Made by a program: the position numbers and the translations under genes
Part shown: one piece after another, positions 2,037 through 34,252 of the stretch
Layout of the letters: each line of letters starts with the position of its first letter
Position numbering within the stretch: position 1 is the stretch's first letter
Assembly (NCBI GenBank): GCA_030647205.1
Contig: JAUSJO010000005.1
Span: 138,523 to 202,522 of the forward strand
Direction: 5' to 3'
From: a bacterium
GTDB taxonomy: Bacteria > Patescibacteriota > CPR2 > UBA1875 > JAJYID01
Length of the DNA: 64,000 nucleotides
Notes under the pieces: generated by a model
Databases searched by the model: none
Told to the model about the DNA's origin: nothing
The model's input: only the letters and a program-made list of their open reading frames with translations

Positions 2037-2455
2037 GTCATTCTGAGTTGTCTAGAATATACCTTAATGTCATCCTCGAGTGGAACGAAGGATCTATTTC
2101 TTTGTCATTCTGGACTTACTGCCCGACCTGAACGGTCGTTCGGGCGGGGATCCGGAATCCAGACTAATTAAATTTTCTAAAGCAGTCATATTTTTTATTT
2201 ATCCACTTTTTTAGAAAAAGTGGAGTAAAAATCGCGACTTAGACGGCTTCTCAAAAGTATCGTTCAAACATAATCTCAAATTTGAAAAATGACAACAAGC
2301 CGATTCCGGAAGCCATATTTTCAAAAGTTCACTTATGTTCTCACTCTCTTTTCGAACCGATAGTCGCAAGAGATCGTTTGCTTCCAAGCTTTCTTTATTA
2401 AAACCATGCCAGGAAGAAAGCTAAAAGTGAAGTTCTCCGTGATGTCGGGAATATT
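2037..2455 (+). repeat. Copy 2 of the mosaic intergenic repeat; the longest copy, with hairpin modules, CCACTTTTTTAGAAAAAGTGG and the tttgaaaaatgacaacaagccgattccggaag module
   Basis: Near-identical blocks to 10420-10600 (ccacttttttagaaaaagt.gag.aaaaatcgcg.cttagacgg..tctcaaag... tttgaaaaatgacaacaagccgattccggaag.cat.ttttcaaaagttc). It also shares ttctccgtgatgtcggga with copy 4. Confidence 0.85.
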
Positions 2456-2647
2456 CATTTTGATTTAAAATTAGCTTTCATCAAAAATAACAACAATTCA
2501 TAAAAAAACTCCAAGCTTTTTGGAAGTCTGCCAGAGGTAATACTCTGGTCTTTGTTTTATTGTGGGTTCAAGCAGCAGGAACTTTGGGTGAGACATTTGA
2601 AAGGATTGAGGGGAAAAATTCCATCTTGAGAAAGGAGGTGAGTTGTT

Positions 2648-3292
2648 ATGACAGATGATAAAGAAAAAAAAGTAGATAGTATCTCCGGGAAGGACGGCAA
2701 AACTTTCTATAGGTCCGTGGCAACGGGAACGATGAGTATGGATCTATCGGAGAGAGAAGCTATCGACAGAGGTTGGGGCTGGGCAGTCACTATGGGTATT
2801 GTAATGATAGTCCTTGGCGCGTTGGCTGTAGTCTATCCGATTGTAACATCAGTAGGTGTGACATTTCTTCTGGGTGTAGTCCTTGTGGTGGCAGGTGTGG
2901 CGCAGTTAGTACAGGCCTTTAGCGTTCGTGGATGGAGCGGCTTTTTCTGGCACACCTTGGTAGCTATAACTTATGCCGTCATCGGAGTGCTACTACTCAC
3001 ATATCCTCTGGGCGGACTTGTGACGCTTACATTTCTACTGGCTCTTTACCTCCTGATTTCCGGTGTTTTCAAGGTAGTAATTTCGCTCTCGTCAAGAGAA
3101 GTATCGGGTTGGGGATGGATGCTGACAAGCGGAATATTGTCGGTGATACTTGGAGTGCTAGTCTGGGCAAGCTGGCCGGTTGGGTCGCTATGGTTTATCG
3201 GCCTTTTGGTCGGTATCGATCTGGTGCTTGTAGGATTTTCGCTTTCTGCGATGGCGCTATCGGCGCATTCTCGTGAACAGGAGGAGATGTAA
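2648..3292 (+). CDS. HdeD/DUF308-like multi-pass membrane protein
   Basis: 214 aa with repeated GWGW...LGxLxxxxP transmembrane segments typical of the DUF308/HdeD family. The N-terminus is Lys-rich with GKDGKTFYR. The RBS is gaaaggaggtgag. Confidence 0.5.
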   Translation: MTDDKEKKVDSISGKDGKTFYRSVATGTMSMDLSEREAIDRGWGWAVTMGIVMIVLGALAVVYPIVTSVGVTFLLGVVLVVAGVAQLVQAFSVRGWSGFFWHTLVAITYAVIGVLLLTYPLGGLVTLTFLLALYLLISGVFKVVISLSSREVSGWGWMLTSGILSVILGVLVWASWPVGSLWFIGLLVGIDLVLVGFSLSAMALSAHSREQEEM

Positions 3293-3357
3293 AAAAAGTT
3301 AATTCGTAGTTAGCCTCGATAAAGCTCGGGGCTACCGCGGAGGGTAGAGGTGGAGAC

Positions 3358-3771
3358 ATGGAAGATAAAATTAAACGGGGAAATAACAAAAAGAAAAAGG
3401 GCGATACCTTCTATGAGGCAATACCTGCGACTGCAGTTGCGCCTCAGGAAATCCATTTGCCAAAGATTGGTGTAAAGACTGCAGATTTTCTAGAGAGTGT
3501 TGTAATATTTTTTGCCGGGACAGTAGAAGTGCTTCTTACGATAAGGGTTTTACTGATGCTTTTTGGTATAAACGGCGGGAACCTTCTGACATATCTCTTG
3601 TATGCAGCAAGCTATCCGTTTGTTCTACTCCTGAATTCTGGTCAGAGCCAAATACCGGAAATGACCAATAAGGTTTTGTATGAAAACATAGCACTTTTGT
3701 TCATTTACTTCGTAGTTTTCTACGGTCTGATAAAAGTAATCAACGCTTTTAGGGAAAGAAATAATAATTAA
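3358..3771 (+). CDS. Small membrane protein, paralog A (137 aa), unknown family
   Basis: Paralogous to 3827-4240: same length, N-terminal KKKKGDTFYE versus DGDIFYR, shared FG(I/A)NGGN and SYP(F/L)V motifs. The RBS is gaggtggagac. Confidence 0.55.
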   Translation: MEDKIKRGNNKKKKGDTFYEAIPATAVAPQEIHLPKIGVKTADFLESVVIFFAGTVEVLLTIRVLLMLFGINGGNLLTYLLYAASYPFVLLLNSGQSQIPEMTNKVLYENIALLFIYFVVFYGLIKVINAFRERNNN

Positions 3772-3826
3772 TTAAAGAAACTGCGTAAAAACGTGGTTCG
3801 CCCATGAGGGCGAGAGGTAGGGAAAA

Positions 3827-4240
3827 ATGGAAAAGGAAACAAAAAAGAAAAAGAAGAAAGAAGAAGAGGTAGATGGCGATATTTTCTATAGGGCTCATCC
3901 TATAGCTCAGCCGATAGCAAGGGTAGAACATCGTGAATCCACGCTTTCTCTTACTGTTGAGAGGGTTTTGTGGTGGGTACTTGGGATTTCTGAAGTTATC
4001 TTGCTTTTTAGAATGGTGTTTGCAGCGGTTGGTGCAAACGGTGGAAATATCATTACGTCATTCTTTTATGCAGTAAGCTATCCGCTGGTCTGGTTTTTCT
4101 TCTATCTTTTCAATACTTTGGGAAGAATACAGGTTTCGTCGCCGACATTTGAGATAGAAACGCTTGCAGCAATGGCATTCTACTACATTGTAGTCTACAT
4201 AGTTGTCGAGCTGATCAAAGGTTTTCGTAGTACAGACTAA
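3827..4240 (+). CDS. Small membrane protein, paralog B (137 aa), unknown family
   Basis: Tandem paralog of 3358-3771. The RBS is gaggtagggaaaa. Confidence 0.55.
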   Translation: MEKETKKKKKKEEEVDGDIFYRAHPIAQPIARVEHRESTLSLTVERVLWWVLGISEVILLFRMVFAAVGANGGNIITSFFYAVSYPLVWFFFYLFNTLGRIQVSSPTFEIETLAAMAFYYIVVYIVVELIKGFRSTD

Positions 4241-4278
4241 CTGTTTTTGTTATAATAATCCCGAAAGGGAGATTGTTT

Positions 4279-4887
4279 ATGGCGGACAAAAACAGTGATA
4301 TTTGGGCTGAAATAAACTCAGATTTAAAAGAGAAGACAGAGAGCGGCTATAAAATGGCTCTACTTGATAGCGACAAGCTTTTGCGCAATGTTTTGAAGGA
4401 AAAAGGCTATCCGGGGAAGGACCTCAAAAAACAGCTTTTTTGGGCAGGGATTAACTTAAGCGGTAGAGCTGATCTTAAAGATGCCATAAAGAAAAAAGAC
4501 GAAGTTTTAAATACTCAAGATTACAGGCTTTCTACATTTGAAATAGAAGATTTTTTAGCTGCTTACAAAAAAGCGATTGAATGGGTTTTGAGCGCCCAGA
4601 AACTTGGTTTTAAGCGCAAAATTGGACTATATTTTGAAAACTGTTTCTTTCTTAAAAATACATCTCTCACTAAGCTGATAGCTGCCATTTTGGTAGTATT
4701 TTTCGGTATTAAACTACTTTCCTCAACCGATACTGGGAAGAGTATAGTCACAAAGGTTGTAGACGTGGATAATTTGCTTTTTGACTGGCTAAAAGTTCTG
4801 ATTTTAATCGGACTAAGTGTGGCCGTAGTTGTGTTTATAAGTTTTCTTTATTTGGATAAGAAGAAAAAAATTAAGATTAAAGAATAA
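4279..4887 (+). CDS. Hypothetical protein with a C-terminal transmembrane anchor
   Basis: ORF with RBS aagggag placed 7 nt before the ATG at 4279. The ORF-track start at 4273 is a TTG two codons earlier. Soluble N-terminal domain and two C-terminal hydrophobic helices. Confidence 0.5.
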   Translation: MADKNSDIWAEINSDLKEKTESGYKMALLDSDKLLRNVLKEKGYPGKDLKKQLFWAGINLSGRADLKDAIKKKDEVLNTQDYRLSTFEIEDFLAAYKKAIEWVLSAQKLGFKRKIGLYFENCFFLKNTSLTKLIAAILVVFFGIKLLSSTDTGKSIVTKVVDVDNLLFDWLKVLILIGLSVAVVVFISFLYLDKKKKIKIKE

Positions 4888-4992
4888 TAATCGGCTTTCA
4901 AAGTCGATTTTACAATGCTAGAATAGTGACAAATAGTAGGAGGGGTTTGGCAACCCATTGTTTTGATTACTTAAAAAACGGAGTCTTAGACA

Positions 4993-7900
4993 TTGAGTAA
5001 AAAGTTTGTTCACTTACATGTTCATACGCAATATTCTCTTCTTGATGGGATGTGCAAGGTTCCTCAGCTTTTGGATAGGGCAAAAGAGTATGGGATGCCG
5101 GCTTGCGCGATTACCGATCATGGAGTGATGTATGGCATTGTTGACTTTTATAAGGAAGCGAAGGCAAGGGATATAAAGCCTTTGATCGGGTGCGAGGTAT
5201 ACGTAGCGCCGAGGAAGCTGACGGATAAAAGCGAAAAGGCAGACGGCAGGCCAAACCATCTCATCCTGATTGCCAAAAACAAAACCGGCTATCAAAACTT
5301 GATGAAGCTATCTACGATTGCTCATCTTGACGGATACTACTATAAACCGAGAATTGATAAGGAAATTTTGGCGAAATATGCGGAAGGTTTAATCGCATCA
5401 TCAGCTTGCTTTAAGGGTGAAATTGCCTCAAAACTCAGAGATGGCAATGAAAAGGGGGCGGAAGAAGCTTTGAAATTTTATAAAGGTCTCTTTGGCGATG
5501 ATTTCTACTTGGAGCTCCAATATTTGCCAGGATTCAAAGAACAAGAAGAGATGAACGAGCTCATAAAGGCATTTGCAAAAAAGCACAAGATGCCGATGGT
5601 GGTGACTAATGATGTCCACTATGTAGATAAAGAGGATCGTGAGGCGCATGATGCTCTTTTGTGCTTGCAAACAGGAAAGCTTGTGTCTGATGAGGATAGG
5701 ATGAAGATGAACTGCGACATATCGTTTACTTCCCCAGAGGAAATAATGGAAGCTTTTAAAGATGTACCTGAGGCGATAGAAAACACAGTAAAAATTGCCG
5801 AGAAATGTAACGTGGAGCTAGAGCTTGGCAAAATATTGATCCCGAACTTCGATGTGCCAGATGGAGAGACGGTGCAAAGTTATATGAGCAAGCTGGTTGA
5901 AGAAGGATTGAAGAAAAAATACGGGAAAATAACACCCGAGATACGCGAAAGAGTGGAATATGAAATGGGTGTTATAGAGAAAATGGGCTATGAATCATAC
6001 TTCCTGATTGTCTGGGATTTTGTGAACTGGGCGAAAGATCAGGGAATCATTGTCGGACCCGGTAGAGGTTCGGCGGCGGGATCAGTAGTATCGTATGCCC
6101 TAAATATTACAGAGCTTGAACCGATGCAGTTTGATCTTCTTTTTGAGCGTTTCCTAAATCCGGATCGTATCTCCATGCCTGATATAGATATGGACTTTGC
6201 TGATGACAGGCGTCATGAAGTGATTGAGTATGTAGCAGAGAAATATGGCAAAGATCATGTGGCGCAGATCATTACTTTTGGTACAATGGCAGCACGTAAT
6301 GCCATTCGTGATACCGGTAGGGTCTTGGGGATGACATATGGCGAAGTTGATAAAATAGCCAAAATGATACCCCAGTTTTCCGGTCTATCTGATGCTGTCC
6401 GGGACGTCCCGGAGTTAAGGGCGCTTTATAGCTCAGATGAAAAAGTAAAAAAACTGATCGATATCGCAAAGAGGCTTGAGGGAGTGTCGAGACATTCTTC
6501 TACTCATGCTGCAGGTGTGGTGATTTCAAAAGAGCCCCTCGTAAACTATACACCGCTCCAAAAAGCGACAAAGGGTGATATCGCAACGAACACGCAGTAT
6601 TCTATGTTTCCGCTTGAAGATCTCGGCATCCTGAAAATGGATTTCTTGGGACTTTCAAACCTTACTGTTTTAAAGAATGCTTTGAGGATTATTAAAAAAG
6701 TTTATGAAAAAGACATTAAGATAGAAGACATTAAACTGGATGACAAAAAAACTTTTGCGCTTTTAAAAAGGGCCGAAACAACAGGAGTGTTCCAGCTTGA
6801 GTCTGCCGGCATGAAAAGATATATCCGGGCGCTGAAACCGACTGTTTTTGAAGATATTGTGGCTATGGTGGCGCTATATAGACCCGGTCCTATGCAGTTT
6901 ATCGACGACTTTATTGCCCGAAAAGCCGGTAAGAAAAAGGTGACTTATACGCATCCTCTTATGGAAAATGCTCTCAAGAATACTTACGGCGTTATAGTTT
7001 ACCAGGAGCAAGTCATGCAGATTTCAAAGGAAATGGCAGGTTTTACGGGCGGTGAAGCTGATACTCTTCGTAAGGCAATGGGTAAAAAGATTGCCAAAAT
7101 GATGAAGAAAATGCGTGCGAAATTCATCGATGGCGCTGTTGAAAATGGGGTAAAGAAGGAAACGGCAGAAAAAGTCTTTGACGATTTTGAAAAGTTTGCG
7201 CAGTACGGTTTCGTGAAGGCTCATGCTGCCTGTTATGCGCTAATTGCATACTGGACGGCATATCTGAAAGCACACTATCCGGATGCCTTTATGGCGGCTC
7301 TCATGACAAGCGACTACTCAAATATGGACCGGATTGCGATAGAAATAGACGAGTGTAGAAAAATGGGTATCGAGGTTTTGCCACCGAGTGTAAATGAGTC
7401 CTATCAGGAGTTCGCAATAGTTAAGCAAACAGGCAATATCAGATTTGGACTACTTGCCGTGAAAAATGTTGGAACGGGTATCATCGAAGCGCTTGTAAAA
7501 GCGAGAAAAGAAGGCGGAGAGTTTAAGTCGGTAGAGGATTTTTGTAAAAGGGTAGATGCCCGTGAAATTAACAAAAAAGTGATGGAAGCTTTCATTAAAT
7601 CAGGTGCAATGGATGACTTTGGCGACCGCTCAACGTTGCTATTTAATCTAGAAAAAATTCTCGAGTTTGCCCAAAAAACGCAAAGAGATACGCTCAGCGG
7701 ACAAATAGATCTTTTTGGCGGACAGGGGATAGAAATGCCGGGGCTGAAGCTGGCAAAACCTGTTTTTGATGCTACATCAAAGGAAAAACTTGCATGGGAG
7801 AGAGAACTGCTCGGCATTTATATTTCTGAGCATCCGCTTGACGGCTATCAAGAGTATGTAGAAAAAGAAGGGCTTACTCAGCTTGCTCTTCTAGGCGAGA

Positions 7901-8409
7901 GCCAATCCTCACAAGAAGTTAGAGTAGCTTGTGTCGTTTCTACTATTCACAAAATCCTGACGAGGAAAAAGGAAAATATGATTTTTGTAAAAGTTGAGGA
8001 CAAAAGCGGAAGCGGCGAACTGGTAGTGTTCCCGAAAATCCTTGCTTCCTACAGCAGATTTTTTGAGGAAGGCAAACTCATACTAGTTAATGGTAAAGTT
8101 AATATGAAAGACGCTGACCCAAAGATACTTGTAGATAGTGTGAAGGATTTAGGGGAAATCGAAGATTTAAATATGGAAGAAGGCGGGGAAATAATCCGAT
8201 TTAGAGATAACTGTCTTGAAATATACGTGCCGAAATATACTGAAACGCAGAAGCTAGCAAAGTTAAAAAAGTCTCTGGCTGATGCGCCGGGGGAGAATGA
8301 TGTCATCATTCATCTTGAACTTAACGAGGTGAGCAAGAAAGTAAAAATGCCTCTAGGGGTAGATTTCTCTGAGGATTTGAAAAATGACATTGTATCCATT
8401 CTCGGCTAG
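4993..8409 (+). CDS. dnaE: DNA polymerase III alpha subunit
   Basis: 1138 aa. PHP domain N-terminus FVHLHVHTQYSLLDG, polymerase core, and a C-terminal OB fold. Apparent TTG start. Confidence 0.95.
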   Translation: MSKKFVHLHVHTQYSLLDGMCKVPQLLDRAKEYGMPACAITDHGVMYGIVDFYKEAKARDIKPLIGCEVYVAPRKLTDKSEKADGRPNHLILIAKNKTGYQNLMKLSTIAHLDGYYYKPRIDKEILAKYAEGLIASSACFKGEIASKLRDGNEKGAEEALKFYKGLFGDDFYLELQYLPGFKEQEEMNELIKAFAKKHKMPMVVTNDVHYVDKEDREAHDALLCLQTGKLVSDEDRMKMNCDISFTSPEEIMEAFKDVPEAIENTVKIAEKCNVELELGKILIPNFDVPDGETVQSYMSKLVEEGLKKKYGKITPEIRERVEYEMGVIEKMGYESYFLIVWDFVNWAKDQGIIVGPGRGSAAGSVVSYALNITELEPMQFDLLFERFLNPDRISMPDIDMDFADDRRHEVIEYVAEKYGKDHVAQIITFGTMAARNAIRDTGRVLGMTYGEVDKIAKMIPQFSGLSDAVRDVPELRALYSSDEKVKKLIDIAKRLEGVSRHSSTHAAGVVISKEPLVNYTPLQKATKGDIATNTQYSMFPLEDLGILKMDFLGLSNLTVLKNALRIIKKVYEKDIKIEDIKLDDKKTFALLKRAETTGVFQLESAGMKRYIRALKPTVFEDIVAMVALYRPGPMQFIDDFIARKAGKKKVTYTHPLMENALKNTYGVIVYQEQVMQISKEMAGFTGGEADTLRKAMGKKIAKMMKKMRAKFIDGAVENGVKKETAEKVFDDFEKFAQYGFVKAHAACYALIAYWTAYLKAHYPDAFMAALMTSDYSNMDRIAIEIDECRKMGIEVLPPSVNESYQEFAIVKQTGNIRFGLLAVKNVGTGIIEALVKARKEGGEFKSVEDFCKRVDAREINKKVMEAFIKSGAMDDFGDRSTLLFNLEKILEFAQKTQRDTLSGQIDLFGGQGIEMPGLKLAKPVFDATSKEKLAWERELLGIYISEHPLDGYQEYVEKEGLTQLALLGESQSSQEVRVACVVSTIHKILTRKKENMIFVKVEDKSGSGELVVFPKILASYSRFFEEGKLILVNGKVNMKDADPKILVDSVKDLGEIEDLNMEEGGEIIRFRDNCLEIYVPKYTETQKLAKLKKSLADAPGENDVIIHLELNEVSKKVKMPLGVDFSEDLKNDIVSILG

Positions 8410-8520
8410 CTTCTGATAAAGTTGCGATTATTTGATTTTTATGTTATGATTTAAACTTCAATTAAAGAACCTTGATAGATAAATTTTTTGACTAAAACCC
8501 AATTTGGAGGCTGAAATGCC

Positions 8521-8799
8521 ATGCAAATCGAGGTCTTGTATTACATAGATGAAAACGGTGATAAGAGGCTCAAAAGTGAGACTCTGAATGAATATGGTGA
8601 TATAGACGGGGCTGTAAAGTCTGTGGAAGATCGGATTTCTATGGGGCGTAAAATAGAGATTTTGGCAACGATAGTACATAATTCCAAGAAACATGAAAGT
8701 ATCTCTGACATTATAAAGAGGCTTTATGGCAACAACAAGCGTGCGCAAAAAAAAGCGCCGAGAATAGTGGAAGGGAGAAGCAAGGCTTACCGACACTAA
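8521..8799 (+). CDS. Small hypothetical protein (92 aa)
   Basis: RBS ggagg 10 nt upstream. Protein-like composition, whereas the overlapping minus-strand ORF 8458-8832 looks like junk. Confidence 0.4.
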   Translation: MQIEVLYYIDENGDKRLKSETLNEYGDIDGAVKSVEDRISMGRKIEILATIVHNSKKHESISDIIKRLYGNNKRAQKKAPRIVEGRSKAYRH

Positions 8800-8888
8800 A
8801 AACCTCGACAAAAGCAAGGAGGAGATTGGCAAAAGCTAGGTGTTTTGGGGAATGGGGGTTCCCGAGCTGGATGGATTCATGAGACATT

Positions 8889-9347
8889 ATGCCGGTTTCG
8901 AACAACAAGATTGGGGAAAACATGAGCAGGAAGATTAGCTTAGGGGATGGGAGATATAAAGTTTCCCATCGAGGCCTCGATTGTTCTGAAGCTCCCTCTC
9001 TGGATTCGATCAATGAGGACCTTCTGACGGCCGATGATGTAGTTCTTGGCTGTAATCTTTGTCATGAGCTTGGGCTGGCATTAAGAGCCCGACTTGCCAA
9101 AGAAAAAGGTATTCTCAAAAAGGTCTCTAGACTTGTTAGGGAACAAAGAAACATCTCTGACGACGAACTTTGTTGGTTCGTCGAGTGTACTGACGCTCAG
9201 ATTGAGTGCCAGGGATGTGGGCACAGCGCAGAGGCAATCACAGAAAGGATAGATGATATAGCAGATAATCGTGTAGTATATCCATCCTTTCGTCCGCCGG
9301 TTGTGGTGGGTGATGTTGGTTCCAGTTTCTGGAGCCCGGGGTCATAA
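8889..9347 (+). CDS. Cys-rich hypothetical protein (152 aa), GC-rich orphan
   Basis: CNLCHE, CWFVEC and CQGCGH motifs. Local GC is clearly above the neighbouring genes. Followed by the strong hairpin at 9393-9420. Confidence 0.45.
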   Translation: MPVSNNKIGENMSRKISLGDGRYKVSHRGLDCSEAPSLDSINEDLLTADDVVLGCNLCHELGLALRARLAKEKGILKKVSRLVREQRNISDDELCWFVECTDAQIECQGCGHSAEAITERIDDIADNRVVYPSFRPPVVVGDVGSSFWSPGS

Positions 9348-9392
9348 AGAGGAGTTAACTTCCTTGGGGGACGTTGAAGGTCAAAAGATTAA

Positions 9393-9420
9393 GTGGCTCG
9401 GGCAAGTCTGCCCGAGCCAC
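9393..9420 (+). terminator. GC-rich stem-loop downstream of the 8889 ORF (no clear U tract)
   Basis: gtggctcgggca agtc tgcccgagccac, a perfect 12-bp stem. Confidence 0.4.
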
Positions 9421-9505
9421 CTCAAAGCGGGATAAATATCTAAGATTACAGTTATAACATTTGAGAATTTTTATCTCGCTTTATTTATTTGTAATTAGAA
9501 TTCAA

Positions 9506-9534
9506 TTGACATTTATGAGATAATTTACTACAAT
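9506..9534 (+). promoter_or_regulatory. Consensus sigma70-type promoter for rplS
   Basis: ttgaca, 17 nt, tacaat. Confidence 0.55.
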
Positions 9535-9577
9535 CATAGAGTCGCTTTCGCGATTTTTTAAAATAATTAAACACATT

Positions 9578-10255
9578 ATGGATAGAATAAAAGATTTTGA
9601 CGTTAAAAATATGAAAAAAGTTCCCGATATAAAATCAGGGGATACTGTTCGTGTTCACACAAAAATTAAAGAAGGCAGCAAAGAGAGAATTCAAATTTTT
9701 GAAGGCGTTGTAATAAAGAAACAGGGTGGAAACAATGTCGGTGCTTCTATCACGGTTCGCAAAATGTCTTATGGCATTGGCGTAGAAAGAACATTTCTCA
9801 TGCACTCGCCATTACTTGAGAAAATTCAAGTTGTGAAAAGGGCAAGAGTACGAAGAGCAAACATCGGATACCTGCGGAATTTGACAGGTAAGTCAGCAAA
9901 ACTAAGAGAAAAGCAGTTTGATGCATTAGCCGTGAACGTGAAGGAAGAGGAACTTGCTCCTGCTGATCAGGCAGAGATAGATGAGCCGGTTGAAATCTCT
10001 GAAGATGTTTTAGCTCAGGCTGATACAGTGAGCGCGGAAGATGTTGCAAAAAGAGAAGAAAAAGAAGCCAAAGTTGAAGATACGGGTCCGGTTGCGGAGG
10101 ACGAGCAGGAAGCGCCCGAAGAAGAGATAGAAGAAGGCGTAGAGAAGGCAGAGAAAGACCTTGAGCATGGTAAAAGTACTGAAGGTGAACAGGCAGAGAA
10201 ATCTGAAGAAGATGCGGAGCCTGCAGAAAAAGAAGAAGAAACACCGGAAGCATAA
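9578..10255 (+). CDS. rplS: Ribosomal protein L19 with an acidic C-terminal extension
   Basis: GDTVRVH...[12 protein letters not shown]...[13 protein letters not shown] core, then about 100 aa of E/A-rich tail. Confidence 0.88.
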
Positions 10256-10278
10256 ATCTTAAAAATATAATTTATAAA

Positions 10279-10308
10279 AACCGACTCGTGATGAGTTGGT
10301 TTTTTGTT
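10279..10308 (+). terminator. Intrinsic terminator after rplS
   Basis: aaccgactc gtgat gagttggtt followed by ttttt. Confidence 0.6.
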
Positions 10309-10317
10309 GCTCTATCT

Positions 10318-10625
10318 GTCATTCCGACCGATACCACGTTAGTGGAAAGTGGAGGAATCCCTTTCCCTTGTCATTCCCGCGGAGGCGGGAATCCAGCCTT
10401 TCTTTAAATAATTTCCACTTTTTTAGAAAAAGTAGAGCAAAAATCGCGGCTTAGACGGCCTCTCAAAGTATAACTCAAAACTTCTCTCAAATTTGAAAAA
10501 TGACAACAAGCCGATTCCGGAAGTCATCTTTTCAAAAGTTCGTTCAGCTTTTCGTTCTCTTTTCGAGCCGATAGCCGCAAAGAGAGGCTTCTTTTCAAAA
10601 ACCATGCCAGAGGAGAGAGTGGAAA
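10318..10625 (+). repeat. Copy 3 of the mosaic intergenic repeat
   Basis: gtcattccgacc...ggaggaatccc, gtcattcccgcggaggcgggaatccag, ccacttttttagaaaaagtagagcaaaaatcgcggcttagacgg, tttgaaaaatgacaacaagccgattccggaag... The last 3 blocks match copy 2 and copy 5, and the first 2 blocks match copy 4. Confidence 0.85.
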
Positions 10626-10654
10626 AGTCCCGTGTTTTAGTTTACACTTGGTGC

Positions 10655-16889: not shown

Positions 16890-17222
16890 GTCATTCCGAC
16901 CGATTTCCTGAAAGGACGAGCGGAGGAATCCCTTTCCCCGTATGTCATTCCCGCGGAGGCGGGAATCCAGACTTTAAAATACTCTATCTACTTTTTTAGA
17001 AAAAGTAGAATCAAAAATCCCCGACTAGCACTATGAAATAGATAAAACTAATAAAAATTTATCATTCAAAACAGCAACCACTCCGTTTAATACTGCTTTT
17101 GTCCTTCGGAACATTCTAAATTTTTAAGTTTTATCCACTATTTCTCCGTGATGTCGGGAGAGAACAAAAATCACGCCGAGAAGAACCTCATTCCGTCATC
17201 CTGAGGCACGAAGGATCTCTCC
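16890..17222 (+). repeat. Copy 4 of the mosaic intergenic repeat
   Basis: gtcattccgaccgatttcctgaaaggacgagcggaggaatccc, gtcattcccgcggaggcgggaatccag, ctacttttttagaaaaagtagaatcaaaaatcc, and a tail ttctccgtgatgtcggga...aaaaatcacgccg...gtcatcctgaggcacgaaggatct that is shared with copies 1 and 2. Confidence 0.85.
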
Positions 17223-21423: not shown

Positions 21424-21560
21424 CTTCCTGTCATCCTTGCAAAGGCAATAATTTCGTTTCCAAATAGTTGTTTACTTGTGGACTAATTTATTCTAATATT
21501 GTCTGGCGTTAGCACCTTGTTATTTTCCCATGCTTTAGAAAACCTAAGGAGGTTTGAGCA

Positions 21561-21761
21561 ATGTCCGAAGATAAGCCTTTGATATTGGCGAGGAATTCCA
21601 AAGGAACAATAGACGTTCGATTACCTGCCGCTTTTTATAAAAAGCTCTGGTCGGACGTAGCAACTGTAGAGGCAGAAGAACTAGTCCATAAAGGACTGAA
21701 AAGGAGGCGTCTCTCAGTCGGGCCGGACGGAAGGTTGATCCCAATTAACGAGGTGGTATAG
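21561..21761 (+). CDS. AbrB/MazE-like swapped-hairpin mini-protein, paralog 1 (66 aa)
   Basis: GTIDVRLPAAFYKKLW...GPDGRLIPI resembles the MazE/AbrB N-terminal fold (AVRIPATLMQAL...VDGKLIIEPV). Strong RBS aaggagg. Confidence 0.5.
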   Translation: MSEDKPLILARNSKGTIDVRLPAAFYKKLWSDVATVEAEELVHKGLKRRRLSVGPDGRLIPINEVV

Positions 21762-21764
21762 AAA

Positions 21765-21950
21765 ATGCCAAAACCTATCAAACTCGCAAAGCATTCAAGA
21801 GGGACAGTAGATGTTCGATTACCAGATGCTTTTTACAAAAAAATCTGGCATGATGTGGCGATGATTCAAGGTGAGGAAAGGACGTTCAGAGGACAGCGAA
21901 AGAAACGCCTATTTGCTGGACCGAACGGAGAATTCGTGGAGGTGATCTAA
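21765..21950 (+). CDS. AbrB/MazE-like mini-protein, paralog 2 (61 aa)
   Basis: GTVDVRLPDAFYKKIW...GPNGEFVEV. Clear paralog of 21561-21761, separated by 3 nt. Confidence 0.5.
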   Translation: MPKPIKLAKHSRGTVDVRLPDAFYKKIWHDVAMIQGEERTFRGQRKKRLFAGPNGEFVEVI

Positions 21951-22145
21951 ATGTGTGTACCAAAACCAAAAGAGCAGGTTGCTCTCAGGTATACAGTCAC
22001 ATTTAACCCGGATATTCCGACTGAACTTATCCAGAAAATCTGGGCTATGGTTGATGCGGTCGAAGGTAGGGAACGCGAACTGTTAGGGCGTAGAATGAGG
22101 AGATTCGAAATACTCCCCGACGGGAATTTCCACTACCTCAACTAG
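21951..22145 (+). CDS. AbrB/MazE-like mini-protein, paralog 3 (64 aa)
   Basis: VALRYTVTFNPDIPTELIQKIW...LPDGNFHYL. A divergent third paralog that starts immediately after the stop of paralog 2. Confidence 0.45.
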   Translation: MCVPKPKEQVALRYTVTFNPDIPTELIQKIWAMVDAVEGRERELLGRRMRRFEILPDGNFHYLN

Positions 22146-27670: not shown

Positions 27671-29821
27671 ATGAATAGCCCTATAACGCTTAAAACTACA
27701 GTTTCGCAGCTTCAGGGGGTGGGCTCGGTATATCAAAAGAAACTGGAAAAACTTCACGTAGACACAGTTGAAGACTTGCTTTTGTATTTGCCGAGAACTT
27801 GGGAAGACTTTTCTAAGATTACGGAAATTGCCAAAGTCAGACCGCCGGGAACTTACTGTATACAGGGAAATATCTGGAGTATCGGTAACAAACGCTCGGT
27901 AAGAAGGCGGATGTCGATAACCGAGGCTATCATTGCCGATAAAACCGGAACCATGAAAGCAGTCTGGTTCAACCAGCCATTTCTCATAAAAAATATGAAG
28001 CAGGGTGATGAGATTTTACTTGCCGGAAGAGTAGAAAATGAATATGGCAAAATTCTCATGAAGTCGCCGGCGTATGAGAAAAAGTCCGATGAACAGACGC
28101 ATTTGGGAAAGATAGTCCCGACTTATAAAGAAACTGATGGCCTATCCTCTCGCTGGCTCAGATATCAGATAACTAAGCTGGTGAAGATCATTTACTCTTT
28201 CAAAGAGTACTTACCGGCTGATGTGATAAAAAACCAAAGTTTGATTAGCTACTCTGCCATGATTCGCCAGCTTCACTTCCCCGATAACTCATATCAGCTG
28301 GAAAAAGCGATAGATCGTCTAAACTTCGACGAGATGTTCCTCTTACAAGTTGCAGTCCAAAATCAGAGGAAGACACTCGATAAAAACCGAGCAATCTCAG
28401 TCCAGTTTAATGAGGAGTTGTCAAAAGAATTCGTCAAAAGCCTAGGATTTACGCTTACCACAGCTCAGAAAAAATCCATTTGGGAGATAATCAAAGATCT
28501 TGAAAAGCCCACTCCGATGAATAGACTTCTTGAGGGTGATGTTGGGTCAGGGAAAACCGTAGTGTCGGCAATGGCAACTTTGATGGTAGCTCGTAATGGA
28601 TTTCAAACGGTATTTTTGGCGCCCACAGAGATTCTCGCCAAACAGCACTATGAATCTTTGAAGAAAATGCTGGAACCATTTGGTGTAAGAGTTGCCTTAC
28701 TTACTGGCAAAAAAGCCCTCCTTCCTTCCGTCATTCCCGCCCCACCTTCTGTCATTCCCGCGGAGGCGGGAATCCAGTCATCACTGAAAGAGGAAAACGT
28801 GAAATCAAAAAAATCAGTGGAAGCCGAGGTTTTAAAACAGGCCAAAGAAGGGGAGATACAGGTTCTTGTCGGTACTCACGCAGTACTTAAAGAAGACATA
28901 GACTTTTGGAGCTTGGCATTCGTGATAGTTGATGAACAGCATAGATTTGGAGTAGGACAGCGCGCTAAATTACGCCAAAAATCAGGGTCAGATGGAACGA
29001 TGCCGCACTTCCTTTCAATGTCAGCAACACCAATCCCGCGGACTCTGACACTTTCGGTTTACGGTGATCTGGATATCTCGGTGATTGACGAGATGCCGCC
29101 GGGGAGGAAGAAAGTAGCGACATTCGTAATTCCACCAGAAAAGAAAGAAGATTCATATGAATTCATTCGCCAGACTGTGAAAAAGGGGAGACAGGTTTTT
29201 GTCATCTGTCCGCTGATAGATGACTCAGAAAATATGGAGCTTCGAAGCGTCACCGCAGAGTATGAGAGATTATCCAGAATGGTATTTACCGATCTCAAAA
29301 TCGCCATGATTCACGGGAAGATGAGACCGGAGGAAAAAGAAAGAATCATGAGCGACTTTGCGACCGGCAAGACAAACATCCTTGTTTCGACATCTTTGGT
29401 TGAGGTTGGTGTCGATGTGCCAAATGCGACTATCATGATTATCGAGGGCGCTGATAGATTTGGTTTGGCACAACTGCATCAGTTCCGCGGAAGAGTTGGT
29501 AGGGGAAAGTACCAGTCATATTGTTTCCTTTTCACCGACAACCAGTCTGAAACTGTTCAGAAAAGACTCGATGCGATAACTAAAACAAATGATGGGTTTA
29601 AAATTGCTGAGAAAGATCTGGAAATAAGAGGACCGGGTGAAGTTCTCGGCGAACGCCAGCACGGTCTGCCGGATATCAAGACTCAGAATCTAATGAATGT
29701 AGAGCTGATAAAAAGAACAAAAACCGAAGCCAAAAACTTCCTGAAGAAAAATGAAGTAAATGATTTCCCGTTACTCGCAGAGAAAATCTCTAAATATGAT
29801 GGGGTAGCAAATCTGGAGTAG
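27671..29821 (+). CDS. recG: ATP-dependent DNA helicase RecG, carrying an in-frame repeat insertion
   Basis: Wedge domain, helicase motifs (GDVGSGKT, DEQHRFG, SATPIPRT), and a C-terminal domain. About 25 extra residues (LLPSVIPAPPSVIPAEAGIQS...) are encoded by 28718-28780. Confidence 0.92.
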   Translation: MNSPITLKTTVSQLQGVGSVYQKKLEKLHVDTVEDLLLYLPRTWEDFSKITEIAKVRPPGTYCIQGNIWSIGNKRSVRRRMSITEAIIADKTGTMKAVWFNQPFLIKNMKQGDEILLAGRVENEYGKILMKSPAYEKKSDEQTHLGKIVPTYKETDGLSSRWLRYQITKLVKIIYSFKEYLPADVIKNQSLISYSAMIRQLHFPDNSYQLEKAIDRLNFDEMFLLQVAVQNQRKTLDKNRAISVQFNEELSKEFVKSLGFTLTTAQKKSIWEIIKDLEKPTPMNRLLEGDVGSGKTVVSAMATLMVARNGFQTVFLAPTEILAKQHYESLKKMLEPFGVRVALLTGKKALLPSVIPAPPSVIPAEAGIQSSLKEENVKSKKSVEAEVLKQAKEGEIQVLVGTHAVLKEDIDFWSLAFVIVDEQHRFGVGQRAKLRQKSGSDGTMPHFLSMSATPIPRTLTLSVYGDLDISVIDEMPPGRKKVATFVIPPEKKEDSYEFIRQTVKKGRQVFVICPLIDDSENMELRSVTAEYERLSRMVFTDLKIAMIHGKMRPEEKERIMSDFATGKTNILVSTSLVEVGVDVPNATIMIIEGADRFGLAQLHQFRGRVGRGKYQSYCFLFTDNQSETVQKRLDAITKTNDGFKIAEKDLEIRGPGEVLGERQHGLPDIKTQNLMNVELIKRTKTEAKNFLKKNEVNDFPLLAEKISKYDGVANLE
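28718..28780 (+). repeat. Fragment of the dispersed palindromic repeat inserted in frame within recG
   Basis: ccgtcattcccgccccaccttctgtcattcccgcggaggcgggaatccag. The 27-mer gtcattcccgcggaggcgggaatccag is identical to the intergenic copies at 10377-10403 and 16947-16973. Confidence 0.85.
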
Positions 29822-29893: not shown

Positions 29894-30148
29894 ATGGAAA
29901 AATCAAAGTTCATTAGTGTCAAAGAGGCAATGGATATAACTGGATATTCTCGTGTTCATGTTATCCGGCTTATTAATGATGGGAAAATACAAGCAGAGAA
30001 AGTGGGCCATACCTATATGGTTGATAGGAATTCACTCGGCGGGATTTACAAGGAAATGACAGAAGCGGATAAGAAAAAAGTTACAGAGGCAGTAGATAGG
30101 ACTTTCAAGGAATATGGAGACGTTCTAAAAAGGTTGGGTAAAGAATAA
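29894..30148 (+). CDS. Helix-turn-helix (excisionase/MerR-like) putative antitoxin
   Basis: ISVKEAMDITGYSRVHVIRLINDGKI HTH motif. The stop overlaps the start of the Doc gene (ATGA). Confidence 0.6.
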   Translation: MEKSKFISVKEAMDITGYSRVHVIRLINDGKIQAEKVGHTYMVDRNSLGGIYKEMTEADKKKVTEAVDRTFKEYGDVLKRLGKE

Positions 30149-30564
30149 TGAAGCCGGTAACTATCCAGGAAGTAGAGCTGATAGCTCATAAGCTGGCCAA
30201 GAAAATGATGACTTGGAATGAACCGATTCCTGACTTTGGCACTCGCTATCCGGGTATCCTAGAAAGCTGTCTGGCAAATGCCTTTCAAACATATGCCAAA
30301 AAGGATCTATACCCGACGCTAGAAGATAAAGCGGCGATTATTTTCTATCAAATGATTAAAAACCATCCCTTTGTGAATGGCAACAAGCGCATTGCCGTAA
30401 CGACACTTTTTACCTTTTTGGTAATTAACGATAAGTGGCTAGACGTGCAAAGAGAGGATCTTTATCGTGTGGCGGTGTGGGTCGCAGAAAGCCCGGCGCC
30501 ACTTAAGGATGGGACACTCTTGGCGATAAAAGATTTAGTTAAGCTTACCATGGAGGATGCTTGA
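30148..30564 (+). CDS. doc: Doc (death-on-curing) / Fic-fold toxin
   Basis: Signature HPFVNGNKR (Doc motif HxFx(D/N)GNKR). 138 aa. Confidence 0.75.
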   Translation: MKPVTIQEVELIAHKLAKKMMTWNEPIPDFGTRYPGILESCLANAFQTYAKKDLYPTLEDKAAIIFYQMIKNHPFVNGNKRIAVTTLFTFLVINDKWLDVQREDLYRVAVWVAESPAPLKDGTLLAIKDLVKLTMEDA

Positions 30565-31682
30565 AAAATCAGGAAAATATAGAAGAAGAAAGCAACTCTA
30601 AGGGCATTACAATTGGTGTTGGAGGAATACCATTCCCTTATGTTGACTACCTTAAATCCTATCAGAGAAATATAGACCAAATATATGTCTCATCGGGAAT
30701 AAAGGCTATTAGCGATTTAAATAGGAGTATTTTACCCAATATCTCTAGTCCGCTGTATAAAGGTCTAAGGGATTCTTTGAGCATACAAGAGTCCTTAATT
30801 CAGGGGCTTCAAAGGGTGGGAAAGGACCTCACTCTGTCTTCGAATTTAATGCAGGAAACGTCAAAGAATCTAATTGTGCCTTTAGATAGGGCAATCAGTA
30901 ATTTGGGTGGGTTGGCAGATGCACTGGAGGGTACGCCGTATTTACGAGGCGTAAAATTGACCAGCTCTCTTGTTGGTTCTTTGGAAGTTCAGCAAAGTCA
31001 AATATTACATGGATTAAAAACTATTTCTACTAAGAATGACTTGACCAAGTTTACAAATGTAATAAATCCGGGTATTTCTTTATTTTCTTCAGGCATTTCT
31101 AAGATAGTGGACTCGACTTCCGTTTTTGAAAATACACTTGTAAAGGAAGAAAAATCAGAGAGAGCAGAAAGACCAGACAGCAAGGAACAACAGAAGCTTG
31201 ATGAAATATTGAACGGGATAAACACTAAATTTGTCGAACGAAGAAAGGCCTGTTGGGAGACATTTTCTAAAAAGGGCAACGATTATATAGGTCAGTCCGC
31301 AAGTTCAATGAGGAGACTAATAGATGGGTTACTTAGAGAACTGGCCCCAAGGGAAGCAGTCCAACAAACGGAATTTTACAAAAAAAGAATTCAAAATTAT
31401 AATGAAAAAACACTAGAAGAAAAATCGAAGGTTACGAGGAAAGATCGTATTTATTACATATTGGATTATGATAAGAATGAGAGAGACGATATTTTTAAGA
31501 GGGTTATCAAAGTTATTGAATCGATAGTGGAAACACTAGATCACCTAAATGCATGGGATCACGAACCCATTGATGAAGATGGGTTTGTGTGCGGAGTATT
31601 CATAACAATAGAAGGTCAGCTGCTTGCCTTATTATCGATGCGGGATAGTATTGCTATAGAAAAAGGGCAGAATAAGATATAA
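30561..31682 (+). CDS. Hypothetical 373-aa protein translationally coupled to doc
   Basis: A 4-nt overlap with the doc stop. Alpha-helical, with no membrane segments. The C-terminal half has ERRKACWETF...MRRLIDGLLRELAP. Confidence 0.5.
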   Translation: MKNQENIEEESNSKGITIGVGGIPFPYVDYLKSYQRNIDQIYVSSGIKAISDLNRSILPNISSPLYKGLRDSLSIQESLIQGLQRVGKDLTLSSNLMQETSKNLIVPLDRAISNLGGLADALEGTPYLRGVKLTSSLVGSLEVQQSQILHGLKTISTKNDLTKFTNVINPGISLFSSGISKIVDSTSVFENTLVKEEKSERAERPDSKEQQKLDEILNGINTKFVERRKACWETFSKKGNDYIGQSASSMRRLIDGLLRELAPREAVQQTEFYKKRIQNYNEKTLEEKSKVTRKDRIYYILDYDKNERDDIFKRVIKVIESIVETLDHLNAWDHEPIDEDGFVCGVFITIEGQLLALLSMRDSIAIEKGQNKI

Positions 31683-31713: not shown

Positions 31714-32001
31714 ATGAATCAACAACCACAACAACAAGTACAAATCAAGGCTGATGACCAGACGGCCAAAGGTGTATACACCAACAACTTAATCATTGGT
31801 CACACAAAAGAGGAGTTTGTGCTGGATTTTCTAAATGTGTTCCCACCACAGGGAGCACTGGTTTCTCGTGTATTCACAAGTCCGGGTCATGCAAAAAGAA
31901 TTGTAAAAGCGCTTGAAGAGAATGTAAAAAAATACGAAAAGCAGTTTGGTAAAATAGAAGAGTCGGAAGCTCCTGACGGCGATATCGGTTTTAAGGCCTA
32001 A
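31714..32001 (+). CDS. DUF3467-like small protein
   Basis: Q-rich N-terminus then GVYTNNLIIGHTKEEFVLDF, a pattern typical of DUF3467. RBS gaggag. Confidence 0.55.
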   Translation: MNQQPQQQVQIKADDQTAKGVYTNNLIIGHTKEEFVLDFLNVFPPQGALVSRVFTSPGHAKRIVKALEENVKKYEKQFGKIEESEAPDGDIGFKA

Positions 32002-32008
32002 TAAAAAG

Positions 32009-32035
32009 GCGCCCCTTGCGGGGGCGCCGAGTAGA
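32009..32035. terminator. Bidirectional terminator
   Basis: ggcgcccc ttgc ggggcgcc with flanking A/T runs, between convergent genes. Confidence 0.65.
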
Positions 32036-32048
32036 ACTCTGGAAATGG

Positions 32049-32447
32049 TTAGCAGGGGATAAAAGTGTAGATTCCTTCGCAGACCATTTCCGTTTGGTCA
32101 TACTTGTAAATCGTCACGTTTGCCCTGATACCGGTTGGGATATCCTTTGATTCTGAGAGAGACAGCGTTGTCCGAAGCTTATCTCCGGCAGAAATGAACT
32201 TGTAGAAATGGACGGATTCGATAGTTCCGAGCAGTAGTTTTTCTGCTTCCGTGGATGGGTCACTTTCGATAATGTGAGCTGCAATTCTTGCCATTAGTTC
32301 TACGAGAGGGAAAGCTCGCATTACCCCTTTTTCGGCATCAAGATAATGTGGATCTTCTCCTACAACCGTAAAAGCTTCTATACCACCATCATCAGTATGC
32401 ATGACAGTAGTAGTATCCATGAGATCCTGAATTCCTGTTACGTTCAT
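32049..32447 (-). CDS. Hotdog-fold (thioesterase/dehydratase-like) protein
   Basis: 132 aa. Secondary-structure pattern and size are consistent with a hotdog fold. The family assignment is uncertain. Confidence 0.4.
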   Translation of the reverse strand: MNVTGIQDLMDTTTVMHTDDGGIEAFTVVGEDPHYLDAEKGVMRAFPLVELMARIAAHIIESDPSTEAEKLLLGTIESVHFYKFISAGDKLRTTLSLSESKDIPTGIRANVTIYKYDQTEMVCEGIYTFIPC

Positions 32448-32571
32448 TAGGGGTCTCCTTATATAAGGTTACGTTGGCAGGGCCAAAATTTGAGATATTA
32501 TCTTACCATAAAAACGAGGTTTTATCAACATAATCCTTATAAAAAAAGGAATTTTAAGATATATTAAAATC

Positions 32572-33144
32572 ATGAGGCAAAAATACGGATATTATCATGG
32601 CAGATTCCAGCCGTTTCACAACGGTCACTTGGCGAATGTCAAAAAGATGCTAGAAAATCATGAAGAAATTATTATTGGTATTTCTAACCCATTTCGCTTG
32701 CCTGCAGTTTTTGAAGAAGGCGACTCGGCAGAACTGAGAGCAAGTGTGGAAAAAGGGAGAAAAAACGAGAATAATCCATACACATTTTGGCAGAGAATGA
32801 CCATGATCAGAAAGTCACTAGATAAAGAAGGAATAGACTTAGGCAGAGTCATGATCGTTCCAAATGCAACAAGGAATGGACTGCCTGCAGATGAGATGAT
32901 ACCTGCCAGAGATGACATGGTAATATACTCTGTCCCCAAGCAAGTTCACAACAAAGAAATTATAGAGAACCGCAAAAAGATGGGCTATGAAGTGGTAACT
33001 CTGGAAAAAGTTGATACGCCAACGGGAGGGAAGATAAGGGAAATGATAAAAGAGGGAGATGTAACCTGGAAAGAGTTTGTCCCTGAAGGAACAGTAGAAG
33101 TTGTAGAGTTGGCAGAGAAAAAGAGCTTAAGTAAAAATGGATAA
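32572..33144 (+). CDS. nadM: Nicotinamide-nucleotide adenylyltransferase, archaeal NadM type
   Basis: N-terminal GRFQPFHNGH (HxGH nucleotidyltransferase motif in the NadM arrangement). About 170-190 aa. Confidence 0.7.
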   Translation: MRQKYGYYHGRFQPFHNGHLANVKKMLENHEEIIIGISNPFRLPAVFEEGDSAELRASVEKGRKNENNPYTFWQRMTMIRKSLDKEGIDLGRVMIVPNATRNGLPADEMIPARDDMVIYSVPKQVHNKEIIENRKKMGYEVVTLEKVDTPTGGKIREMIKEGDVTWKEFVPEGTVEVVELAEKKSLSKNG

Positions 33145-33355
33145 TACTGATCTGTCATTCCGCTCGCCACTGCGCATAAGCCGGTCGAAATGACAAACTG
33201 TTGTATAATCTCAATTATGGAAAAGAAATGTAGTACTAGTTGCCCAGAGTAATGACTTGCAATATATAACCATTATGATATAATATAGTTATTCTAAAGC
33301 AGTGATGAGGGACTGCAAAGAGCGTTCTTTTTCAGTTTATCGACAGGAGGAGACT

Positions 33356-33964: not shown

Positions 33965-34020
33965 CGTTAACATATGTCAGAAAGTGAGGAGGCGACATTG
34001 TATTCAAGGCAATTGTCCAC

Positions 34021-34179: not shown

Positions 34180-34252
34180 ATTACAAACCCCTTTAGGGCG
34201 CTTTAAAAGAGAAGCCTCGAGAGGGGTTTTTCTTTTCTGCTATAATAAAGCC

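Follow-up and report, generated by a model that had tools for sequence, protein, structure and literature searches.

Which elements make up the hairpin-rich arrays that fill several gaps between genes in a compact bacterial genome, and how could they have come to lie there on one strand? The question is raised by a stretch of 64,000 nt (hereafter, the window), positions 138,523 to 202,522 of contig JAUSJO010000005.1 (assembly GCA_030647205.1, Patescibacteriota), in which an earlier reading made from the DNA letters (the sequence-only reading) had pointed to five copies of a mosaic repeat. We find that two separable elements make up these arrays: short hairpins built on GTCATYC, which have the form of dRS3, NTS and the Ssn-related motifs (SRM), an already described kind, and an element of ~171 nt, here called the H1-rod, which is structurally well supported and undescribed in Rfam 15 and the literature searched. 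Our preferred reading, which we hold with about even confidence, is that the arrays are a BIME/NIME-like mosaic of two kinds of hairpin DNA, both handled as single strands by trans-acting enzymes.

Five intergenic arrays in a compact genome

The window has ~41% G+C and a GC skew that is positive almost throughout, and nearly all of its genes lie on the + strand, including the housekeeping genes gatB, dnaE, rplS, rnhB, nusA, clpB, radA, murB, tyrS and recG, further comEA, tig, clpP, rpoBC and a ribosomal protein cluster. Its nearest relatives in public records are 'Patescibacteria group bacterium' H41-bin225_1 (the H41 relative), which is syntenic with the window at 73-79% nucleotide identity, and 'candidate division WS5 bacterium' (the WS5 relative). 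We confirm that the five arrays (array 1, 272-545; array 2, 2037-2455; array 3, 10318-10625; array 4, 16890-17222; array 5, 46013-46310) are all on the + strand and each flanked by co-directional + strand genes. They account for five of the six largest intergenic regions of the window, and the genes beside them are unrelated (gatB, a DUF308 gene, rnhB, a SemiSWEET gene and cutA). In three arrays, 6-7 nt separate the first hairpin from the stop codon of the preceding gene, and in a fourth 24 nt; the hairpins of array 3 sit downstream of the terminator of rplS itself.

The 23-nt hairpin block CCACTTTTTTAGAAAAAGTGGAG occurs five times with 0-3 mismatches, compared with 0.01 occurrences expected from shuffles, and the pattern GTCATYC-N12-GRATC three times, compared with 0.02 expected; GTCATYC alone is found 31 times against an expectation of 13.9 +/- 3.8. 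Furthermore, short-read contigs of run SRR13727527 that are 100% identical to the window end inside the arrays (L048 starts at window position 17076, and L062 covers about 2283-10397), which provides independent evidence for multi-copy repeats in this genome.

The GTCATYC hairpins are Ssn-related motifs in form

A full-text literature search with GTCATTCCCGC led to PMC11893778 (Nat Commun 2025). There, the Neisseria dRS3 palindrome is given as ATTCCC-N8-GGGAAT, NTS as a longer, oriented 28-nt consensus (CGTCATTCCCGCGMAVGCGGGAATCYRG), and SRM as the wider class (PMC11893778). SsnA, a GIY-YIG nuclease of 94 aa, binds and cuts the motifs solely as single-stranded DNA (ssDNA) and on one strand only, with cutting governed by the three bases 5' of the palindrome and binding by the C 3' of it; the ssnA gene is typically bordered by its own motifs, and natural transformation is a proposed role linked to Ssn (PMC11893778).

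The window carries TGTCATTCCCGCGGAGGCGGGAATCCAG three times, each copy fitting the dRS3 pattern exactly and the NTS consensus with two mismatches (5' C>T and M>G), a fit with 0 occurrences in shuffles. The dRS3 pattern as a whole has three exact matches and one with a single mismatch, compared with 0.13 expected. Under the search rule of PMC11893778, the NTS consensus at <=1 mismatch, no window copy reaches the threshold. The degenerate SRM pattern as printed gave 0 matches in the window; it also fails on the NTS consensus itself, and we judged its transcription unreliable. A structural scan for GTC followed by an ATYC stem and GRAT detected 14 hairpins on the + strand, with four coexisting stem classes (ATTCCCGC, ATTCTGG, ATCCT and a long-loop ATTCC type). 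GTC is kept in all 14, and the base after the stem is C in 12 of them and A in the other two.

Array 1 opens with a hairpin of the form GTC ATCCT...AGGAT C at 277-300 (families D7/D10), followed at 308-330 by GTC ATTCTGG cctga CCAGAAT with A in place of the final C (DNA fold z = -4.2). Three hairpins occupy 2037-2162 in array 2, starting 7 nt past the gatB stop (2037-2059, 2069-2094 and a long one at 2104-2162, DNA fold z = -3.0). In array 3, a long-type SRM at 10318-10360, GTC ATTCC...GGAAT CCC, of the type that flanks ssn in relatives (see below), precedes an NTS/dRS3-like TGTCATTCCCGCGGAGGCGGGAATCCAG hairpin at 10369-10396 (DNA fold z = -3.25). The same succession recurs in array 4, at 16890-16970, where a long-type SRM (16890-16932) starting 6 nt past the clpB stop and an NTS/dRS3-like hairpin (16943-16970) lie on the 5' side of the rod and an ATCCT-type hairpin (17195-17218) on its 3' side. 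Array 5 has three hairpins within 46013-46117, starting 6 nt past the upstream stop: 46013-46035, 46042-46065 and a degenerate NTS-like copy at 46090-46117. All of these are on the + strand, as is a possible degenerate remnant, weakly indicated, at 21430-21452 (GTCATCCTTGCAAAGGCAAT), 6 nt past the murB stop.

The sequence-only reading had recognised no family in these repeats. For the GTCATYC hairpins this no longer holds, given the exact dRS3 match, the NTS match with two mismatches and the ssn gene in relatives, so that one half of the proposed family turns out to be a described repeat; for the H1-rod it stands. With this set of hairpins, the Ssn/hairpin system, itself described only recently, reaches into an uncultivated lineage with small genomes.

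An ssn gene bordered by hairpins in relatives

In contigs L005, L059 and L060, a single-domain GIY-YIG open reading frame (ORF) of 93-96 aa (PF01541, E = 4e-16) lies between two long-type hairpins, the upstream one forward and the downstream one reverse. A search for the GIY-YIG family gave 1207 matches, several of them on contigs of the window's clade, and the PDB relatives of the small protein are UPF0213 proteins. The gene order in L059 is recG - fabA-like - DUF3467 - [SRM] ssn [SRM] - comEA - DUF2207 (L059 3001-3824), and in L060 ssn is followed by comEC (L060 3001-4794). The location of ssn directly upstream of comEA or comEC, and thus beside DNA-uptake genes, is consistent with the tie to natural transformation published for Ssn.

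The window retains the order recG, DUF3467, comEA, DUF2207, with 2.26 kb of other genes at the expected ssn site: in place of SRM-ssn-SRM, 31998-34256 holds a - strand ORF without assignment, a cytidylyltransferase-like ORF and a 220-aa ORF. Within this DUF3467-comEA interval, at 33157-33200, lies the sole - strand hairpin of the window, which is diverged and was not detected by the perfect-stem scan. The sequence-only reading had listed it as a solitary hairpin at 33158-33205; the hairpin exists, and it is a diverged long-type SRM in reverse orientation, resembling the reverse ssn-flanking hairpin of L059, in the very interval where relatives have SRM-ssn-SRM.

A hairpin unit inserted in recG

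The RecG protein of the window (recG, 27671-29821) has 39 residues where that of T. maritima (1GM5) has 8, and the 31 extra residues (...LLPSVIPAPPSVIPAEAGIQSS...) are a translated hairpin. The in-frame insert of ~99 nt, at 28714-28812 on the + strand (ends approximate), contains a partial and a full NTS-like hairpin (28730-28777); this GTCATTCCC unit had escaped the sequence-only reading. The closest RecG relatives (87-92% identity, 683 aa) are without the insert, and a homologous insert at the same point occurs in four scattered sequences among 13 (P0001-P0017 set). The empty allele reads GGTAAAACA|AAGAAATCAG, with 99 nt inserted in the window and 102 nt in the WS5 relative. Such a patchy distribution requires either repeated seamless loss or allele exchange. 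To judge by these alleles, the recG unit is a discrete, dispensable insertion of the kind known as Rickettsia palindromic elements (RPE), and its variation among relatives is sequence-level evidence for seamless gain and loss of hairpin units in genes.

Two of the RecG relatives, P0013 and P0014, have a second, unrelated insert of ~20 aa (QRVAPSAG...HPL, alignment columns ~577-596), which may be another repeat-encoded coding insertion.

The H1-rod is a single folded element

The H1-rod consists of a T-rich leader, the hairpin H1 (CYACTTTTT-TAG-AAAAAGTRG), a linker (AGYAAAAATCG) and a long imperfect stem with a GCGRCT...AGYCGC-A closure. The 9-bp hairpin and the 'longer module', treated by the sequence-only reading as separate modules, are thus both parts of one folded element of ~171 nt. 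From 16 full copies (171-182 nt) of the window and related metagenome-assembled genomes (MAGs), we built an alignment and a covariance model, which has exactly five matches in the window, all on the + strand and with E-values down to 1e-39, and which also recovers H1-rod copies in relatives. The consensus structure has 41 predicted pairs, with 95.9% of the cells paired, compared with 43-58% when the partners are slid; 13 of the 41 pairs show changes on both sides, compared with 0-6 in the slid controls, and the covariation score was reached by none of 500 shuffles. The closing pair changes from G-C to A-T in 7 of the 16 copies. Apical stem types TGAC/GTCA, CCAC/GTGG and AATT/AATT define subfamilies I-III, and the window copy of array 4 together with L004 forms a fourth, closed by TCCCCGAC/GTCGGGA. 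Watson-Crick pairs make up 94% of the total, and G.T and A.C mispairs are equally frequent, 12 each; with this symmetry there is no RNA-type G.U signature, and the functional strand is unreadable from the pairs.

Array 1 contains a diverged copy at 350-516 (H1 hairpin at 350-370; 78.6 bits, E = 2.7e-16). Full copies of subfamily I are found in array 2 at 2203-2374 (172 bits) and in array 3 at 10415-10585 (181 bits, with the consensus structure), the latter being the copy that had been flagged: its H1 spans 10415-10435, followed by the linker AGCAAAAATCG and the long stem closed by GCGGCT/AGCCGC. The subfamily IV copy of array 4 lies at 16988-17165 (48 bits, E = 2e-9; 91% identical to L004), and the full copy of array 5, of subfamily III, at 46131-46302 (179 bits; RNA fold z = -2.98). 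Downstream of the rod, array 2 has a trailing module, AAAACCATGCCAGGA, with a stray fragment, CTCCGTGATGTCGGGA, at 2400-2450, and array 3 has the trailing module AAAACCATGCCAGAG at 10598-10612, again on the + strand. The piece CTCCGTGATGTCGGGA belongs to the fourth subfamily, as its 3' arm. A reading of the trailing ATG module as a small ORF was discarded, since frames and lengths differ between copies.

At the gathering threshold, Rfam 15 gave 0 matches for the window and 18 loci, and at permissive thresholds (E up to 10) only chance-level matches for the window and 28 loci. BLAST comparison of the forms from the candidate phyla radiation (CPR), Bacteroidota and Sulfurovum, and of the viral region described below, with plasmid and phage collections returned nothing or one chance match. 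Additionally, we found no publication with the H1 and linker sequences in the literature searched, and a literature search for repeats in Patescibacteria gave nothing relevant.

Turnover, ends and association with hairpins

Three sites allow a comparison with the H41 relative, and the presence of the H1-rod differs at each of them. In place of array 1, upstream of gatB, the H41 relative (L056) has a 70-nt spacer, and thus an empty orthologous site (an H1-like match found there in L056 is coding sequence and not an H1-rod); in place of array 2 and its H1-rod, downstream of gatB, it has hairpins only. Conversely, an H1-rod of the H41 relative separates the orthologues of ORFs 4273-4887 from that of dnaE, a gap that measures 105 nt in the window. 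H1-rod copies are 92% identical between two genomes whose flanking genes are 73-79% identical, and nested fragments occur, such as the stray 3' arm of subfamily IV in array 2.

Across 17 copies, we found no consistent flanking direct repeat that could be a target-site duplication (TSD) and no fixed 5' target, the 5' flanks being merely T-rich. The long stem excludes H1, and its inverted repeat falls short of the ends of the element; with the TSD also absent, the label MITE, suggested by the sequence-only reading, does not hold. No autonomous master copy, with head and tail separated by an ORF, was found. Among ~55 window ORFs scanned, there were no transposase or integrase domains and no Y1_Tnp (RAYT) matches, with no TnpA/TnpB nearby and no TnpA in the window. 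A scan for promoters and terminators gave nothing decisive.

A conserved 18-nt junction, GGGAATCCAG-yyTTTAAATAATTT-H1, is present in about 6 of the 17 copies, in three subfamilies and several genomes, which indicates that an NTS-like hairpin and an H1-rod often form one composite. All five rods of the window lie within the five intergenic regions, out of 63, that hold + strand SRM arrays (hypergeometric estimate ~3e-6); in two others there is just the reverse copy or the degenerate remnant. Of 20 distinct H1-rod copies, 19 share their orientation with the genes and with the GC skew.

The H1 head in other lineages

Species-representative genomes, scanned with the exact H1 pattern, yielded 47 loci. 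CPR-like MAGs with the head (H1 and what directly adjoins it) include Saccharibacteria and Wolfebacteria records. The linker, which was not in the search pattern, is conserved across phyla, as is the T-rich leader. The head is joined to a shorter stem at about 18 loci in Sulfurovum (82-84 nt), in Flavobacteriales and Chryseobacterium (about 220 nt), in Cytophagales and in one MAG labelled Clostridia. A Chitinophagaceae contig (L022 3289-3482) has three tandem 77-nt units of head and short stem in a convergent intergenic region. Three IMG/VR contigs, L049, L050 (770-851) and L051 (1605-1686), each contain two tandem 53-nt head units, at a place where the ORF map suggests two diverging genes; these contigs look giant-virus-like and encode DUF7197, GDP-mannose dehydratase, DHFR and lipase.

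The covariance model aligns the Sulfurovum form from end to end, from the head and closing stem to the final ...CAU. Its layout is H1, AGCAAAAAUCG, a stem-loop with a conserved loop of ~30 nt and a U-rich tail. The purL-purH spacer and the hemN spacer each hold it in four species, and its stem has undergone compensatory changes at these sites (GTTACGGC/GCCGTAAC compared with GTCACTAC/GTAGTGAC). The stem-GATTTTTGC side, similar to an intrinsic terminator, is the one into which a gene runs at most Sulfurovum copies.

We put forward, as no firmer than a tentative proposal, that the H1 head with a covarying stem of 20 to 170 nt is an undescribed element shared by candidate-phyla bacteria, Bacteroidota, Campylobacterota and a giant-virus-like contig, which could be the recognition module of a hairpin-specific ssDNA enzyme, that is, a second Ssn-like system, or equally a new widespread structured RNA.

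How the arrays could have formed

The reading of the arrays as a mosaic of two kinds of hairpin DNA builds on motif identity, structure, strand bias, presence or absence among relatives and the ssn-hairpin architecture of relatives, which are observed; from these, we infer cleavage, the route of mobilisation and any host function. The GTC-ATYC...GRAT-C hairpins, as ssDNA, would be strand-specific binding and cutting sites of a ~95-aa GIY-YIG Ssn, and hairpin units would insert and later be lost, being tolerated right behind stop codons and, once, in frame in recG. The H1-rod would be non-autonomous, would have to fold as a single strand and would be moved in trans by another hairpin-specific enzyme, and, joined to an NTS-like hairpin by the 18-nt junction, it could spread as a composite. 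The single-strand stage may be the lagging-strand template or incoming transforming DNA. Both kinds of hairpin would then pile up together, on one strand, in the few permissive gaps of a compact genome. For the GTCATYC hairpins, this mechanism, including the presumed cutting, is borrowed from the published Ssn system on the strength of the ssn-hairpin architecture and the ssn-com adjacency in relatives. For the H1-rod, a DNA element moved in trans is suggested by presence and absence at orthologous sites, by subfamilies and nested fragments, by conservation above that of neighbouring genes, by the composite junction, by the symmetric mispairs and by the lack of spanning terminal inverted repeats (TIR), of a TSD and of a transposase.

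Several observations weigh against this reading. The ssn gene is absent from the 64-kb window, including the syntenic site, where other genes are found. No enzyme could be linked to the H1-rod; clustering of the ORFs within <=2.5 kb of the heads at the 47 loci gave only syntenic neighbours, and no exact filled/empty pair defining the ends of the H1-rod was found. Genes and replication run the same way in these genomes, and transcription would therefore explain the strand bias just as well. Every outside copy came from a search with the exact H1, so that the invariance of H1 across taxa is partly by construction and the copy numbers in relatives are lower bounds. Finally, the Sulfurovum short form has less the look of a parasite than of a functional site that has been retained, and its stable retention leaves a role as cis-acting RNA or as a protein-binding site a serious rival.

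The former role, in which the H1-rod would be co-transcribed and act as a transcript end or insulator (by terminating transcription in both directions, by stabilising a 5' or 3' end or as a target of RNase III, roles demonstrated for Correia and REP elements), with spread being secondary, is in our view rather unlikely, although several observations speak for it. All five window copies and 19 of 20 copies in relatives are co-oriented with genes, the SRM arrays lie just behind stop codons, at the distances given above, like REPs in 3' untranslated regions, and the short form is kept at orthologous spacers with compensatory changes. Moreover, the reverse strand of every form reads stem - GATTTTTGC, like an intrinsic terminator, and Sulfurovum genes mostly run into that side. 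In the window, however, the terminator-like side of the copies points away from the genes and no U-tract follows the rod on the + strand, rplS has its own terminator ahead of array 3, and the RNA fold z-score of the copy in that array is only -1.3. Nor is G.U in excess over A.C, and the viral copies lie between apparently diverging genes, where there is no gene end.

If the H1-rod, and above all its 82-nt short form, were a family of independently transcribed small RNAs, each with a hairpin at the 5' end, a single-stranded A-rich linker and a stem-loop at the other end, this would account for the sRNA-like layout of the Sulfurovum form, for the strong compensatory changes of the H1-rod and for the tandem units in the Chitinophagaceae and viral contigs; yet neither a promoter scan nor inspection of the flanks showed upstream promoter conservation, CPR rods are without a + strand terminator, no Rfam family matches and the equal numbers of G.T and A.C are no argument for RNA, and we regard this explanation as more doubtful still than the next one. 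That one, which we think quite unlikely, takes H1 as a chromosomal protein-binding palindrome (9-3-9) for a dimeric nucleoid, replication or uptake factor, selected and not mobile, with the rods as passengers. H1 is indeed a perfect palindrome, the linker and the T-rich leader are conserved across phyla though outside the search pattern, and the tandem viral copies between apparently diverging genes are operator-like. However, the second stem position changes from C-G to T-A on both sides within one genome, which is more in keeping with a hairpin than with a fixed half-site, rod and H1 covary as a single unit, and CPR, Bacteroidota, Campylobacterota and a virus would need one common binding protein, with no shared neighbouring gene found. 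That the shared blocks are chance similarity or leaders of particular genes is hardly credible: intergenic location alone speaks for it, whereas the shuffle controls, the covariance-model E-values down to 1e-39, the unrelated flanking genes and the copies at different loci in relatives speak against it. Gene-specific leaders, which the sequence-only reading had named as the alternative to its repeat family, are excluded by those flanking genes and by presence and absence at orthologous sites.

Comparison with known systems

The notion of a dispersed, hairpin-rich mosaic of the REP/BIME/RPE kind is upheld, and the insertion in recG is RPE-like. The arrays share with NTS/SRM-SsnA (PMC11893778) a hairpin of GTC + ATTCCCGC-loop-GCGGGAAT + C with orientation-giving flanks, many copies clustered around genes, a gene for a ~95-aa single-domain GIY-YIG protein bordered by hairpins (here in relatives) and a link to natural transformation (here via the neighbouring comEA or comEC). 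They differ in that the best window copies are two mismatches off the Neisseria consensus, in having at least three stem classes plus a long-loop type, and in the WS5/Patescibacteria-labelled, uncultivated host lineage, which is absent from the main text of PMC11893778; furthermore, the window is without ssn and shows a near-exclusive strand bias and an in-frame insertion in recG.

Like REP/BIME and REPIN elements with their RAYT, the arrays comprise short imperfect palindromes with a conserved 5' tag, form mosaics behind genes and include long hairpin doublets needing single-strand folding, and the enzyme gene is flanked by its own repeats; in contrast, the tag is GTC(A) and not GTAG, and the enzyme GIY-YIG and not HUH/Y1. 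As in NIMEs, which Parkhill et al. 2000 reportedly described as RS units bounded by dRS3, dRS3-type hairpins alternate with other modules in shuffled order between genes, whereas here the module other than dRS3 is a single 171-nt structured element with a conserved hairpin head. The recG unit resembles RPE in being an in-frame palindromic insert in a housekeeping gene that adds a surface peptide, although it is the one coding case here and the remaining copies are intergenic. Correia (CREE), ERIC and MITE-like repeats are likewise intergenic, 100-170 nt long, with long hairpins and possible effects on transcript ends, but the H1-rod has no TSD and its inverted repeat excludes the 5' head. Palindrome-associated elements derived from IS200/IS605 have in common with the arrays the lack of TIR and TSD, hairpins near the ends, orientation on one strand and apparent seamless loss (the recG unit); they differ in the absence here of a fixed 4-5-nt 5' target (T-rich only) and of TnpA/TnpB nearby. 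We know of no insertion sequence related to the H1-rod.

The second structured element is newly exposed, with strong compensatory evidence and a head recurring across phyla. Should the head be the handle of a new ssDNA enzyme, it would offer a starting point for new site-specific ssDNA tools; should it be RNA, it would represent a new widespread family.

Other features of the window

The segment between recG and DUF3467, at 29894-31682, encodes HTH_17, Fic/DOC and a protein whose nuclease domain is pPIWI-associated; in the WS5 relative, a fabA-like gene takes this place. The segment resembles a variable island, possibly one for toxin-antitoxin or defence. No tRNA genes were found in the 64 kb, despite the presence of the rpoBC-rpsL-fusA-tuf-S10 region. 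The rplS gene (9578-10255) encodes 225 aa, comprising an L19 domain (residues 4-112) and an acidic C-terminal tail of ~110 residues. At 21561-22145, three tandem small ORFs (61-66 aa) were called, the first without a Pfam match, and at least two of them share an 89-nt direct repeat, 72% identical (21573/21771). The 13-mer (G/A)TTTTAGTTTACA at 10630-10645, just upstream of rnhB, is found again at 46362-46375, where it is the start of cutA and codes for MILVYI; its recurrence is probably a coincidence.

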